Origin: Alphaproteobacteria bacterium
GTDB taxonomy: Bacteria; Pseudomonadota; Alphaproteobacteria; GCA-2731375
Direction of reading: 5' to 3'
NCBI GenBank assembly: GCA_046582595.1
Contig: JAYGEB010000363.1
Coordinates: forward strand, 1-34,991
DNA: 34,991 bases
Under the pieces are notes generated by a model. That model worked only from the letters and a program-made list of their open reading frames with translations, ran no database searches and was not told where the DNA came from. Shown here one piece after another: positions 14,248 through 18,729 of this stretch. Within the stretch, counting starts at the first letter, position 1. Every line of letters begins with the position of its first letter. Both the position numbers and the translations under genes were made by a program.

Positions 14248-14511
14248 ACCAATCTCCAACACGTCATTTTTTCGATACCGCTTTAATTTACATAATGCAT
14301 TCTGCGGCAAAGACAAATGGCATGCAAGTATGATCATATGCAACGAAAATGGGGCGCCGCCGGGCCATTCGCGCCCGCGGCGGCAAACTCAGGGCAAACG
14401 AAATATTAATCCCTCCGCGCCACTATTTCATCATAGCCAAAGGTCATGTCCGATCTTTGGCGGATATTTTCGCCGTGCGCGCGAGGGAAGCTTACCAGGG
14501 AAGACGGACCG

Positions 14512-15507
14512 ATGAGTATGAACAGCGAAGCGATCGAGATGGACTTGGACGCACTGCAAAATGACCGGGCCCTCGATGAGGTTGGCTTTGCCGACGACGA
14601 CGCTGAAAACCGGCGGGAATTATCCCACAGTGAATATGACACCTTGGAAGAAGCCGTCATGCAGACGGCGCGGGGGCGGACATTTTTGCGCGAACACGCT
14701 CGGCGCAACCGGGCCGTTGCCTCGGATCTGGTGATGCGGGCACTGGACGACTGCCGCGGCTATTTCCAACGCCAGGAGATGAAGCAACCGGCGGATATTC
14801 TGGCGGCGGAACTGCAGGATATGAGCGACGCCATCAAGCATACTCGGCGCGACATCGCGGCCATAAGGCCCAAGGACGGCGCCAACAACCGTATCATGGC
14901 GGCGACCGAGGATTTGGACGCCATCGTCACGGCGACGGAACGGGCCACCAACGATATTCTGTCGGCCGCGGAACGCATTCAGGAAACCTCCGAAATTTTG
15001 CGCGAGAACGGTTCCGAAGCCGACCTCTTGGATTCGCTCGAAGAGGATATCACGAATATCTTCCTGGCTTGCTCGTTCCAGGACATCACCGGTCAACGCA
15101 CCACCAAGGTCGTCAACGCCTTGCATTATCTGGAACAACGGGTCGGCGCGATGATCGAAATATGGGGTTCGGAAAGCCTGCGCCACGGCGAGGAAGGCGA
15201 TTTCGGCCCCGTCACGGCGGCTGATGACCATCCCGAATCCGGCCTGCTGAATGGCCCGCAATTGGAAGGCCAGGGCGTGGACCAGGCGGACATCGACCAA
15301 TTGTTGAATGACGACGTTGAGCAAATCAAAAGCGAGGCGGAAGCCGACGGCGATACCGGCGATCCGACGGGTGGCATTGAATTCGATGCCGTTCCGGCAG
15401 CCACGGCAGATGGCGCCGACGATCTGGATTTCGACGGCGAGGACGATTTTTCAGGCCTGTCGGAAGAAGCCGACGCCGATACCATCGACGTTATTTTCAA
15501 TTCATAA
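14512..15507 (+). CDS. cheZ: Alphaproteobacterial CheZ-like phosphatase
   Basis: LDAIVTATERATNDIL, ACSFQDITGQR catalytic motif, LLNGPQ...DQADID and an acidic tail ending DTIDVIF. Confidence 0.8.
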   Translation: MSMNSEAIEMDLDALQNDRALDEVGFADDDAENRRELSHSEYDTLEEAVMQTARGRTFLREHARRNRAVASDLVMRALDDCRGYFQRQEMKQPADILAAELQDMSDAIKHTRRDIAAIRPKDGANNRIMAATEDLDAIVTATERATNDILSAAERIQETSEILRENGSEADLLDSLEEDITNIFLACSFQDITGQRTTKVVNALHYLEQRVGAMIEIWGSESLRHGEEGDFGPVTAADDHPESGLLNGPQLEGQGVDQADIDQLLNDDVEQIKSEAEADGDTGDPTGGIEFDAVPAATADGADDLDFDGEDDFSGLSEEADADTIDVIFNS

Positions 15508-15650
15508 CGGAATCTCTTAATACGGTTACGAAATAACGAACGCAAATTTCAACGGCAGAAAACCACCGGTTTCCGCCAATAAAAATAGAAACTACGTCGC
15601 CGCAAAAAGCCATTAGGAATATAATTTCTTGAGGCCAGGCCGCCCGTCCG

Positions 15651-15896
15651 TCAATCGAGTCCCAGCAGTTCGTCGACATTTTCCGGGCCCAGGTCGGGGC
15701 CGTATAGCAAAACATCGCCTACCTGCAGCACCGGGGAGGAGCGGATGTTGCGGCTTTCGATGAAGGCTGCGGCGGCCTCGTCCATCATCAAGTCCTTGGC
15801 CACGAATTCCACGTCATGAGCGCGTAAATAGCCCTTCAACTGTTCACACGGCCGGCAAAGCGGCGTGGAATAGACAATCACTGATTTGTCGGCCAC
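15651..15896 (-). CDS. Glutaredoxin/NrdH-like redoxin
   Basis: VYSTPLCRPC CxxC motif, SSPVL cis-Pro loop; GTG start 1 nt after the upstream stop. Confidence 0.85.
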   Translation of the reverse strand: MADKSVIVYSTPLCRPCEQLKGYLRAHDVEFVAKDLMMDEAAAAFIESRNIRSSPVLQVGDVLLYGPDLGPENVDELLGLD

Positions 15897-15897
15897 C

Positions 15898-16779
15898 TCA
15901 GAGGCTCCCTTCTTCCTTCAACTTGCGGTACAAGGCCTTTTTCTCCAACCAGGCGTTCTTGACCTCTTCCGTCTGCCAGGGTTGCTCCTCGGTGAAGACC
16001 TTGGCTTTCCAGTCCTCCCCCTTGGACCACTTGAACGGGGTCTGGACCGTGGTTCGCGGCGCCGTGGCGCTGTCCAATAGATCCAGGGCCATGGCAATGA
16101 TCTTACGCTGTTGTGCTTCGGCGCCGGGCTCGCCGCAGGGATTGCCCAAGGGAAAGTCCGTAAACAGCAAACGGGGCACGCCGCAAGTCTCGACAATGTC
16201 ACGGGCGCCGGCGACGACGACCGTCGGAATGCCGTTTTCTTCCAGGTAACGGGCGACCAGACTCACGGTCTGGTGGCAAACCGGTCAGACCGGAACCAAA
16301 AGGGCAATATCGACGCCGTCTTCGCGGCACCGCGCCAGCACCTCCGGCGCATCGGTCCCCGTCGTCTTTTGCTGGGAATAGGCGTTGTAAACGCCAAAGG
16401 CCCGGGGGGAAAGAGCGCCTATCCGCCCCGCCTCCGATAATTCCCGCAGCCGGGTCATCGGGAAAAAAGTATTCACGTCATCCAAGGTCGTCGCGTTCAT
16501 GTCGTAGCTATGGGTGCGGCTGTAGAGATCCTCCAGCGGCATATCCGTGGCCACGGCGTAAACATTGGCGGCTTCCCCCCGCTCCAACGGCAGGCGCTGA
16601 TCTTCCCAGGCGCGGGAGGCGATTTCCGACGTTGAGATCAAGGCCAGCCGGCTCTCCGCCAGCGGTTTTTTCAGCGGCGCGAAGGGCACATCATCAAATT
16701 GCGCCCATTGATACGGCTTGTCGTAACCCTGGGTCTGATAATAGGCCGTGGTTTTGTCGATATAGCGTACATAACTCAA
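15898..16779 (-). CDS. PrdB/GrdB-like (glycine/betaine/sarcosine/D-proline reductase selenoprotein B family) selenoprotein, 293 aa, Sec at TGA 16285-16287
   Basis: The two ORF-track fragments are in frame across one TGA: LLVPV-U-PVCHQTVSLVARYLEENGIPTV. Family motifs PLKKPLAESRLALIST, DVNTFFPMTRLREL and FPLGNP; TTG start with GGAGGA RBS. Confidence 0.9.
16256..16274 (-). promoter_or_regulatory. Bacterial SECIS element
   Basis: ACCAGAC-CGUGA-GUCUGGU, a 7-bp stem starting 11 nt 3' of the UGA, with G at the second loop position. Confidence 0.8.
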
Positions 16780-16857
16780 AACGCGTTCCTCCAGAATGAT
16801 GGCCGCCCATTAGACCACGTTCGAGCCGCGCGGCGCCAGGGCGGTTGATGGAATTAC

Positions 16858-18729
16858 TTACTCCGCGGCATCCTTGGCCAGAAATCCGCCCGACTGCCGT
16901 GACCATAAATCGGCATAAAGGCCGCCACGCTGCAGCAGCGTTTGATGATTGCCCTGTTCCACGATACGGCCCCGGTCCATGATGATCAGCCGGTCCATGG
17001 CGGCGATGGTGGAGAGGCGATGGGCAATGGCGATCACCGTCTTGCCAGCCATCAAGGTTTGAAAGCTTTCCTGAATGGCCGCTTCCACTTCAGAATCCAG
17101 GGCCGATGTCGCCTCGTCCAAAATCAAGATCGGCGCATCCTTCAAAAGCACCCGGGCGATGGCGATACGCTGGCGCTGACCGCCCGATAGTTTAACGCCG
17201 CGTTCCCCCACATGGGCCTCCAGGCCGCGCCGGCCCTGGCCGTCTTCAAGCTCCAGGATGAAATCATCGGCTTTCGCCGCCTTCGCCGCCGCCCAGACCT
17301 GGGCTTCGCTGGCGCCGGGTTTTGAATAGGCGATATTGTCGAACACCGAACGATGCAGCAGCGAGGTATCCTGTGTCACCATGCCGATTTGGGCCCGCAG
17401 ACTGTCCTGGGTGACGGTGGAAATGTCCTGGCCGTCGATCAGGATGCGTCCGTCTTCCAGGTCGTAAAAGCGTAGCAACAGGCTGACAAGAGTGGATTTT
17501 CCCGCCCCCGACCGCCCGACGATGCCGACCTTTTCGCCCGGCCGAATATCCAGATCCAGGCCGCCGATCACCCCCTGCTCAACATCCGCCCGCGCCTTGC
17601 CGTAGTTGAAATTGATATGGTCGTAGCGGATGCCGCCCGCCGCCACCACCAATTCCTCGGCATCCGGATCGTCCTCGATGGCCCGCTCGCGGGCGATGGT
17701 TTCCACGCCGTCCATCACCACGCCAATATTCTCGAACACATTGGATACTTCCCACATGATCCATTGGGACATGCCTTGCAGGCGCAAGACCAGCCCGGTG
17801 GCCAAGGCGATGGCGCCGACGCCAACCGCGTCCTGGTACCACAGCCAGACCGACATGCCGGCGATAGAGAAAATCAACGCCGCGTTCATCAGGTTCAGGG
17901 TTACGGTCAGCAGGGTTGAAAGCCGCATTTGGGCGTGCACCGGCGCCAGAAACGCCTGCATCCCCTCGCGGGCGTAGCCGTCTTCGTAGGCCGCATGCGC
18001 GAACATCTTCACGGTGCCGATGTTGGTATAGCTGTCCACCACGCGGCCCGTGACCACCGAGCGCGCCTCGGCTTGGGCCTTGGACCAATCCCTGAGGCGA
18101 GGCACGAAATAGCGCATGGCGATCAGGTATCCGACAAGCCAGAAAATCATGGGCGCCGTCAACCGTATATCGGAACTGGCGAACAGCACCACGGCGGCGG
18201 TGAAATACACCACCACATAAAGCAGCACCTCGGTCAGTTTCATGACGATGTCACGCACCGCCAGGGCGGTCTGCATCATCTTCGCGGCCACCCGCCCGGC
18301 AAAATCGTCCTGATAGAATTCCATGCTCTGGCGCAGCAGATAGCGGTGCGCCTGCCAGCGGGTGCGCATGGCGAAATTGCCCAGCAGGCCCTGATGGGAA
18401 ACCGCTTCATAGAAGAATTTCAGGACCGGCAGGAGCAATAGGACCACCGCCCCCATGATTATCAACTGGCCGCCGTGATCGTCCCAAAAGGTTGCCCGGG
18501 TGGAGGTCGCCAGCCAGTCCACCAAACGGCCGATAAAGGCGAACAGGGACACTTCCAACAACGCGATCACGGTCGCGAACAGGGCCGAGGTTGCCAGCAG
18601 AGGCCAAAACGGCTTGGCGTAATGCAGGGTAAAGGCAACCAGGGAAGCGGGCGGCATTTCCGGCTGCGCGCTGGGCAGCGGATCGGTCATTCTCTCCAGC
18701 CAGCCAAAAAATCTGCTGATCACGGCCAT
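16858..18729 (-). CDS. ABC exporter, fused permease/ATPase (MsbA/MdlB-like)
   Basis: N-terminal TM domain, GRSGAGKST, LSGGQRQR, ILILDEATSALD, IAHRLST. Start at 18729 (ATG) or 18723 (GTG). Confidence 0.92.
   Translation of the reverse strand: MAVISRFFGWLERMTDPLPSAQPEMPPASLVAFTLHYAKPFWPLLATSALFATVIALLEVSLFAFIGRLVDWLATSTRATFWDDHGGQLIIMGAVVLLLLPVLKFFYEAVSHQGLLGNFAMRTRWQAHRYLLRQSMEFYQDDFAGRVAAKMMQTALAVRDIVMKLTEVLLYVVVYFTAAVVLFASSDIRLTAPMIFWLVGYLIAMRYFVPRLRDWSKAQAEARSVVTGRVVDSYTNIGTVKMFAHAAYEDGYAREGMQAFLAPVHAQMRLSTLLTVTLNLMNAALIFSIAGMSVWLWYQDAVGVGAIALATGLVLRLQGMSQWIMWEVSNVFENIGVVMDGVETIARERAIEDDPDAEELVVAAGGIRYDHINFNYGKARADVEQGVIGGLDLDIRPGEKVGIVGRSGAGKSTLVSLLLRFYDLEDGRILIDGQDISTVTQDSLRAQIGMVTQDTSLLHRSVFDNIAYSKPGASEAQVWAAAKAAKADDFILELEDGQGRRGLEAHVGERGVKLSGGQRQRIAIARVLLKDAPILILDEATSALDSEVEAAIQESFQTLMAGKTVIAIAHRLSTIAAMDRLIIMDRGRIVEQGNHQTLLQRGGLYADLWSRQSGGFLAKDAAE

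Follow-up and report, generated by a model that had tools for sequence, protein, structure and literature searches.

A probable selenoprotein of the PrdB/GrdB superfamily and its glutaredoxin-like neighbour in an alphaproteobacterial genome

The DNA considered here, called the window throughout, is a stretch of 34,991 nucleotides from an alphaproteobacterium (GTDB lineage Bacteria; Pseudomonadota; Alphaproteobacteria; GCA-2731375), namely positions 1 to 34,991 of the forward strand of contig JAYGEB010000363.1 in NCBI GenBank assembly GCA_046582595.1. Its subject is a candidate selenoprotein gene and the gene that follows it. Two called open reading frames (ORFs), 16779..16285 (164 amino acids) and 16266..15898 (122 amino acids), share one frame of the minus strand; read through the one internal TGA (16287-16285), they become a single frame of 293 codons, whose true stop is also a TGA. 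The internal TGA is codon 165. Translated as selenocysteine (Sec, U), it sits in the peptide ...DIALLVPV-U-PVCHQTVSLVARY..., giving the motif U165-P-V-C168 in the context LLVPV-U-PVCHQ. The TTG start aligns with the M-S-H-V-R-Y-I-D-K-T starts of homologues, and a gene for a small glutaredoxin (Grx)-like protein lies directly downstream (Table 1).

A spacer of 10 nt (CCGGUUUGCC) separates the internal TGA from a hairpin, ACCAGAC/CGUGA/GUCUGGU (16274-16256), that has a perfect 7-bp stem and a 5-nt loop; two extra G-C pairs (16277-16276 with 16254-16253) lie beneath a C/C mismatch. By calculation the 7-bp hairpin has a free energy of -9.1 kcal/mol, which falls to -11.8 kcal/mol once the lower pairs are included. 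By the criteria quoted in the available passages of a 2026 review (PMC13188914), a bacterial Sec insertion sequence (bSECIS) element has 3-9 nt in its loop with a G among the first two of them, 4-16 bp in its stem, a distance of 16-37 nt between UGA and loop, and a minimum free energy of at most -7.5 kcal/mol. The window hairpin, with its loop CGUGA, 7 bp, 17 nt and -9.1 kcal/mol, falls within every one of these limits. The initial annotation of the window had described two ORFs forming one frame split by a single TGA (16285-16287), the motif LLVPV-U-PVC-HQ, and a perfect 7-bp hairpin starting 11 nt 3' of the TGA, which it took for a SECIS element with a G in the apical loop. Read-through translation bears out both the frame and the motif, the hairpin does start at the 11th base, and its assignment as a SECIS element agrees with the quoted limits and with the covariation described below. 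The annotation left the strand unstated; its coordinates, motif and hairpin stand, with the gene on the minus strand.

Table 1. Coordinates of the features discussed, in window positions unless a locus is named.
Feature	Position	Strand	Description and basis
PrdB/GrdB-like UxxC selenoprotein gene (probable), 293 codons	15898..16779	-	TTG start 16779-16777, Sec codon 165, stop TGA 15900-15898; read-through translation, profile matches
Shine-Dalgarno-like GGAGGA	16787..16792	-	7 nt ahead of the TTG start; read from the sequence
In-frame UGA, probable selenocysteine codon (U165 of U-P-V-C-H-Q)	16285..16287	-	TGA in 122/128, TGC in 6/128 homologous genes
Predicted SECIS element	16253..16277	-	7-bp stem 16274-16268/16262-16256, loop CGUGA 16267-16263; fold, covariation, frozen codons, bSECIS criteria
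Glutaredoxin-like protein, 81 amino acids, C-R-P-C motif	15651..15896	-	GTG start 1 nt past the selenoprotein stop; Pfam Glutaredoxin
In-frame TGA in the partner gene	L108:3418, L116:3418, L120:3411, L122:3415, L123:3415		Rokubacteria/Methylomirabilota MAG (metagenome-assembled genome) records

The case for recoding rests on homologous genes of three origins: the genomes of relatives, the genome of the window itself and named public MAG records. Sec and Cys are separable in these genes only by a count at the DNA level, protein tools printing U as C. In the 128 motif-bearing homologues counted (loci L018-L167), the Sec column holds TGA in 122 and TGC (Cys) in 6. A column so occupied argues that the TGA is not a mutation, and the check proposed at the outset, an alignment of homologues for Cys or Sec at this position, comes out in favour of a selenoprotein. 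Matches were found in 37 of 61 related genomes, 200 in total, with identities of 33-86% among the 150 listed. Exactly one TGA interrupts 146 of these 150; three have no stop (one of them a C-terminal fragment) and one has a TGA plus two TAG codons. In the nearest genome identity is 86% over residues 1-292, the half downstream of the TGA being conserved as much as the half upstream, and among 15 aligned database homologues C-P-V-C-H-Q (with U printed as C) is invariant.

The RNA element is conserved as well. All 122 Sec forms retain a stem at this place, of 7 bp in 98, 6 pairs in 21, 5 in 2 and 4 in 1; the loop is mostly CGUGA, with a few CGUCG, CGUUG, CGUGG, CGUGU and CGGGA. Synonymous sites within the hairpin are nearly frozen (Thr ACC in 120/122, Val GUG in 117/122, Ser AGU in 112/122, Leu CUG in 117/122). 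The codons between UGA and hairpin are free to vary: Pro is CCG in 71, CCC in 36, CCA in 8 and CCT in 7, and Val is GTC in 62, GTT in 31, GTG in 25 and GTA in 4. An alignment of 106 distinct TGA-bearing sequences, 51 nt each (A2), has 94% of its cells paired, as against just 20-32% when the register is slid. Two of its pairs have undergone compensatory change: pair 21-37 is C-G in 78 sequences, U-A in 23 and unpaired in 5, and pair 24-34 is G-C in 102 and A-U in 4. Neither the covariation score nor the count of double changes was matched by any of 500 shuffles. In the six Cys forms the loop codons are different (AUC-AGC and GUC-UCG among them), and between 3 and 6 of the 7 pairs are present. 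They also differ in peptide: these TGC-bearing genes (L066 in G024:C185, L067 in G040:C14, L093, L094, L096 and L097) mostly read Q-T-I-S-L where the Sec forms read Q-T-V-S-L; in the Sec forms the SECIS loop is built from the codons GUG (Val) and AGU (Ser), and the peptide difference therefore tracks the RNA requirement. A small CCGG/CCGG pairing around the window UGA was also considered and was dropped, the alignment showing that it is not kept in other subfamilies.

The genome to which the window belongs, as contig C203 of its own assembly (G000; 4.07 Mb in 523 contigs, 78% complete), encodes selenocysteine machinery. A selD gene (380.4 bits, cut-off 125; contig C489:10881-11807, L001) contains one in-frame TGA and probably encodes a SelD that itself contains Sec. 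selA (579.2 bits, cut-off 267.9) and a full-length selB (404.1 bits, cut-off 242.25) are adjacent on contig C276. A nesting of tRNA-Sec within selB has been reported in some Alphaproteobacteria (a 2021 report, as cited in the passages seen of a review); that arrangement is not present here, a tRNA scan of the selA-selB locus having found no tRNA. Full tRNA-SeC(tca) genes scoring 68-73 bits occur in three of the four same-genus genomes tested (G001, G004 and G011, G002 being without one) and also in G022, from another genus of the same family. These comparisons of genes and genomes show a UGA conserved as a coding position, a hairpin under selection at the level of RNA, and a genome that encodes Sec machinery.

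The protein is a distant member of a known superfamily. Its best NCBIfam match is PrdB, TIGR04483, at 109.4 bits (E = 1.8e-31 over 219 residues, profile positions 20-234 of 238) against an equivalog cut-off of 300. Pfam GRDB (PF07355) is matched at 26.8 bits, over a cut-off of 22, by residues 14-161 only. TIGR01918, the selenoprotein B subfamily, gives 39.4 bits and does not reach its cut-off of 65.45, and the GrdB, GrdF and GrdH models give 36-47 bits against cut-offs of 602-800, matching in their C-terminal halves only (for GrdB, TIGR01917, 36 bits against 602.2, over profile positions 201-423). Because its scores fall under every NCBIfam equivalog cut-off, the protein, judged by these profiles, is PrdB/GrdB-like and the equivalog of no characterised enzyme. 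In a search of the protein database, 3036 proteins matched at E <= 0.001. Full-length forms among them have 293-294 amino acids at 56-68% identity and carry such names as 'reductase' (in Bordetella bronchiseptica) or, from JGI, 'D-proline reductase (dithiol) PrdB'; shortened forms of 164-169 amino acids at 70-99% identity are abundant, which confirms the initial annotation's remark that gene callers split this gene. The same annotation's likening of the protein to PrdB and GrdB survives as kinship within the UxxC family and fails as orthology, the scores lying below the NCBIfam cut-offs and no gene for a pyruvoyl subunit having been found. Structure adds little to this. A sequence search of the PDB found no relative (best E-value 0.65, an unrelated channel). 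The AlphaFold2 model (mean predicted local distance difference test, pLDDT, 82.3; predicted template-modelling score 0.84), in which a C-terminal extension of about 45 residues ends in a helix, had no Foldseek match in the PDB at E <= 0.001. VIA-align reached a best Z of 9.3 (root-mean-square deviation 4.2, 142 residues aligned) with LacI-type and short-chain dehydrogenase/reductase chains of Rossmann-like fold, which were set aside as a generic alpha/beta arrangement that offers no functional lead.

The pyruvoyl partner of the classical enzymes is rarely found. PrdB-like genes are present in all 33 genomes of the bacterial family; a genome of the genus has 4-12 matches, one of another genus 1-6. 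PF09338, the family of the GrdE/PrdA pyruvoyl proproteins, is found in only one of these 33 genomes and not in the window's own. The sole match (453 bits; C10:162446-163654, L168) is in G004, of the same genus, and shows that the search works; G004 may also own a classical glycine- or proline-type reductase. TIGR04480 (PrdA) and PF04723 (GrdA) found no match in the window's genome, a result of little weight because no positive control responded to those two models, and no PrdA, GrdE, GrdA or PrdC match turned up in the neighbourhoods examined. With no detectable pyruvoyl subunit, and PF09338 confined to one family genome in 33, the protein falls outside the classical D-proline and glycine reductases. 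The window's genome has seven PrdB-like copies or fragments (on C203, C513 (two), C191, C458, C211 and C472); six have an in-frame TGA, the exception being the short C472 fragment, which lies at a contig end. The C211 copy is longer (about 415 amino acids) and more distant, with the motif U-P-L-C-T. The paralogues (loci L043-L047) adjoin genes for a Rieske oxygenase, a TauD dioxygenase, electron-transfer flavoprotein alpha, a class III coenzyme A (CoA)-transferase, a DUF2817 protein and a major facilitator superfamily (MFS) transporter.

What the window gene does have at its side is the Grx-like gene. Its product matches Pfam Glutaredoxin (PF00462) at 37.9 bits over a cut-off of 22.9 and carries the motif C-R-P-C; the YruB-type model TIGR02196 is not reached (48.5 against 88.55 bits). 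C13 and C16 of this CxxC are invariant in 32 partners. The gene is directly downstream in all 20 ortholog loci and, next to Sec and Cys forms alike, in 28 of 80 wider loci, which come from Alphaproteobacteria, Burkholderiales, Pseudomonadales, Acidimicrobiales, Rokubacteria/Methylomirabilota, a deltaproteobacterial MAG and Dehalococcoidia. Because the gap between the two genes is a single nucleotide, they look translationally coupled. In five Rokubacteria/Methylomirabilota loci the first Cys codon of the partner's CxxC is itself a TGA (TPF-U-GPCES, TPL-U-RPCES), with a common CCUGCGGUCCGCAGG hairpin about 26 nt downstream of it, and both members of the pair look like selenoprotein genes there. 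The presence of a TGA at this position points to the first Cys of the CxxC as the reactive residue.

A structural model of the complex was built from a natural Cys-form pair, that of locus L093, with alignments of our own (A4 and A3). The two proteins are 61% (enzyme) and 55% (partner) identical to those of the window. The pair has a complex score of 0.67, the best control 0.01. Of 157 solved complexes 116 reach that mark, as do 2 of 215 mismatched pairs, counts that hold only roughly here, the alignments being our own. At least 74% of contacts are common to the runs, and the partner has a pLDDT of at least 86. The modelled interface includes residue 168 of the L093 enzyme (the Val between the active-site Cys residues), residues 10-12 of the partner, immediately before C13, and the partner's residues 34-37, a conserved DLMM. 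The model supports binding of enzyme and partner in a homologue pair.

Taken together, and as judged from sequence, the two ORFs are very probably one gene for a selenoprotein of the PrdB/GrdB ('selenoprotein B') superfamily in which UGA165 is recoded and which constitutes a two-gene reductase module with its Grx-like partner. By the rules of bacterial Sec decoding, the hairpin, its apical loop 17 nt past the UGA, would recruit SelB carrying Sec-tRNASec and so place Sec at codon 165; the terminal UGA, which has no such hairpin, would terminate translation. The redox centre would consist of Sec165 and Cys168 of the invariant U/C-P-V-C-H-Q. If the chemistry follows that of PrdB and GrdB, the selenolate of U165 would attack the substrate and C168 would resolve the intermediate to a Se-S bond, which the downstream 81-residue CxxC protein, to go by synteny and the model of the complex, may then re-reduce.

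Several observations weigh against this assignment. The hairpin does not stand out when one sequence is folded: 63 nt give -18.5 kcal/mol against -15.6 +/- 2.5 kcal/mol for shuffles (z = -1.16, not significant), 25 of 200 shuffles folding at least as well, and single-sequence folding was dropped as proof of a SECIS element. Part of the stem conservation is forced by the conserved peptide HQTVSLV, and the Cys forms, a small contrast set (n = 6), keep up to 6 of the 7 pairs. Neither Rfam nor ARAGORN finds a complete selC in the 78%-complete assembly: the best Rfam tRNA-Sec match (47.6 bits) is tRNA-Ser(cga), and ARAGORN lists 37 tRNAs for the whole assembly, none of them SeC. The sole piece of selC found, by BLAST with the G001 gene, is its first 26 nt, matched at 100% at C63:13037-13062; these are the last bases of a contig of length 13062, and because the match ends the contig we take selC to have been lost to assembly fragmentation rather than to be absent. 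The initial annotation's call for a search of the genome for the sel genes is thus answered in favour of a selenoprotein by selA, selB and selD, and for selC only by a fragment at a contig end. On the side of function, the absence of PrdA and GrdA rests on the same incomplete assembly; the Grx-like gene is missing beside most paralogues and beside 52 of the 80 wider homologues; the complex was modelled on a Cys-form homologue pair and not on the window's proteins, with a calibration that is rough; and Pfam scans of the neighbourhoods gave no third conserved partner and no consistent substrate clue.

It is instructive to ask how far these and other facts can be turned to different accounts of the locus. 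That the TGA is a nonsense mutation or an assembly error, and the ORFs the remnants of a pseudogene or separate genes, can hardly be credited. The 164-169-residue products listed by gene callers, the unremarkable single-sequence fold and the incomplete selC could be cited in its favour, but the account does not fit a TGA that 122 of the 128 homologues, drawn from many phyla, share and that the other six replace with Cys; nor does it fit equal conservation on the two sides of the TGA (86% identity to the nearest genome along residues 1-292), a hairpin with covariation and frozen synonymous sites, or a genome with Sec machinery. It is very improbable, too, that the gene encodes a genuine PrdB of D-proline reductase, or a GrdB-type subunit, whose pyruvoyl PrdA or GrdE is encoded elsewhere. 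For this speak the place of TIGR04483 as best NCBIfam match, a UxxC motif of the kind that reviews list for PrdB, the JGI name on some homologues and the PF09338 gene of G004; against it stand 109.4 bits where the equivalog requires 300 and GrdB, GrdF and GrdH scores that are far below theirs, the presence of PF09338 in one family genome when PrdB-like genes, in 1-12 copies, are in all 33, and the want of PrdA, GrdE, GrdA or PrdC matches in the neighbourhoods examined and of PrdA or GrdA in the window's genome (where no positive control responded).

A third account leaves the selenoprotein intact and questions only the role of its neighbour. The Grx-like protein might be an acceptor of a covalent intermediate, in the manner of GrdA, or a mere co-transcribed thiol-redox protein, with recycling left to the general thioredoxin or glutathione systems; this we regard as unlikely. 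It draws on the absence of the Grx-like gene at most paralogues and at 52 of 80 wider homologues, on glycine reductase, in which an intermediate passes from GrdB to a second Sec protein, GrdA (according to the passages available of a review), and on the five loci where the partner, too, has UxxC. Against it stand an adjacency that holds in all 20 ortholog loci and is maintained across phyla, a stop and a start separated by 1 nt, and a model that sets the residues flanking the partner's CxxC against the active-site loop of the enzyme.

A more far-reaching proposal is possible though doubtful: that the PrdB-like and Grx-like proteins constitute a self-contained selenol/thiol reductase of two proteins, without a pyruvoyl subunit, a hitherto uncharacterised type of enzyme that is widespread in marine and soil bacteria and that in this alphaproteobacterial genus has multiplied to 4-12 paralogues per genome, each tuned to a different small-molecule substrate. 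Some paralogues of such a reductase may act on alpha-substituted acids or acyl-CoA-linked compounds, substrates suggested because CoA-transferase, acyl-CoA dehydrogenase, Rieske oxygenase and TauD genes recur as neighbours. Were it true, a 19-nt SECIS element that is nearly identical across phyla would signify either a very strong constraint by SelB binding or repeated lateral spread of the module.

To our knowledge, no function is known for PrdB members that lack PrdA. The family itself is no stranger to the literature. The passages seen of a 2005 survey of the Sargasso Sea (PMC1088965) count 42 sequences of 'Proline reductase PrdB', with UxxC, as the third most abundant selenoprotein family, and those of a 2008 analysis of Global Ocean Sampling data (PMC2398784) count 235 Sec and 110 Cys forms of PrdB under pfam07355; UxxC is listed as the PrdB motif in PMC1088965 and in PMC13188914. 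To that extent the word 'hidden' in the initial annotation does not hold. Like the window gene, the ocean-metagenome family belongs to the GRDB Pfam family, has Sec in UxxC, comes from marine-type uncultured bacteria and has Cys homologues alongside, and the window gene is best filed under it. In the passages seen, those papers count sequences and make no mention of the Grx-like partner, the near-identical SECIS element across phyla or the multi-copy expansion.

Comparison with the better-known members of the superfamily is a matter of degrees of likeness. PrdB of D-proline reductase (TIGR04483; in the review passages, the Clostridium sticklandii enzyme) resembles the window protein in length class, in its UxxC Sec and, by analogy, in a presumed selenolate attack followed by Se-S resolution. 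The window protein differs in scoring 109 bits against a cut-off of 300, in having no PrdA that could be found, in its C-terminal extension of about 45 residues, and in having a Grx-like partner in place of PrdC. To GrdB, GrdF and GrdH (PF07355, TIGR01918) it is homologous in their C-terminal halves (about profile positions 200-425 of 431-435), with Sec equivalently placed; unlike them it has no N-terminal half, it scores below their cut-offs, and no GrdA was found in its genome, in a search without a responding control. FarB, a GrdB-like selenoprotein of Synergistota, is proposed to cleave the C-F bond of fluoroacetate (PMC10838667, in the part seen); it illustrates that selenoprotein B homologues are thought to use substrates other than amino acids, through attack by Sec on an alpha carbon. 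By its description there, FarB differs in being homologous to GrdB at full length and in having a GrdE-like partner together with a radical-SAM (S-adenosylmethionine) gene. A literature search for a PrdB-like or GrdB-like subfamily of this kind turned up only the fluoroacetate metabolism of Synergistota and nothing on this subfamily, and the pairing of PrdB-like and Grx-like proteins was not found in a search that covered main-text passages only and does not imply its absence from the literature. Within that compass, three features may be new: the constant Grx-like partner, a 19-nt SECIS element that is nearly identical from phylum to phylum, and an expansion to many copies in the absence of a pyruvoyl subunit.

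The find will not surprise a specialist in selenoproteins; its value lies in a correct annotation and in a redox pair that can be put to the test. The gene is shortened to 164-169 residues in public protein sets, and because each genome of the group hides several such genes, the selenoproteomes of uncultured marine Alphaproteobacteria are under-counted. In the papers cited above, as far as they were available, 'PrdB' has since 2005 counted as one of the ocean's most abundant selenoprotein families, and its fixed pairing with a Grx-like protein of CxxC (in some lineages UxxC) type offers a concrete, testable redox couple.

The surroundings of the pair are less constant than the pair itself. Neighbouring genes vary (ATP-binding cassette (ABC) exporter, CheZ, CoA-transferase III, acyl-CoA dehydrogenase, AMP-ligase, MFS transporter), and a promoter and terminator scan of 15400-17000 gave nothing above shuffles. 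Only 4 of the 20 ortholog loci keep the upstream ABC exporter and only 6 keep cheZ, and neither gene is reckoned part of the system. The CheZ-like gene of the window (14446-15507, plus strand) converges on the Grx-like gene and encodes a protein of 353 residues, whose residues 196-288 align with the C-terminal portion of the CheZ profile (203 positions) and which thus has a long N-terminal extension. In a single case, a Rhodospirillaceae MAG (L092:1060-2439), a pyridine-nucleotide disulfide oxidoreductase resembling glutathione reductase is encoded directly upstream of a PrdB-like/Grx-like pair, a possible clue to the electron donor.

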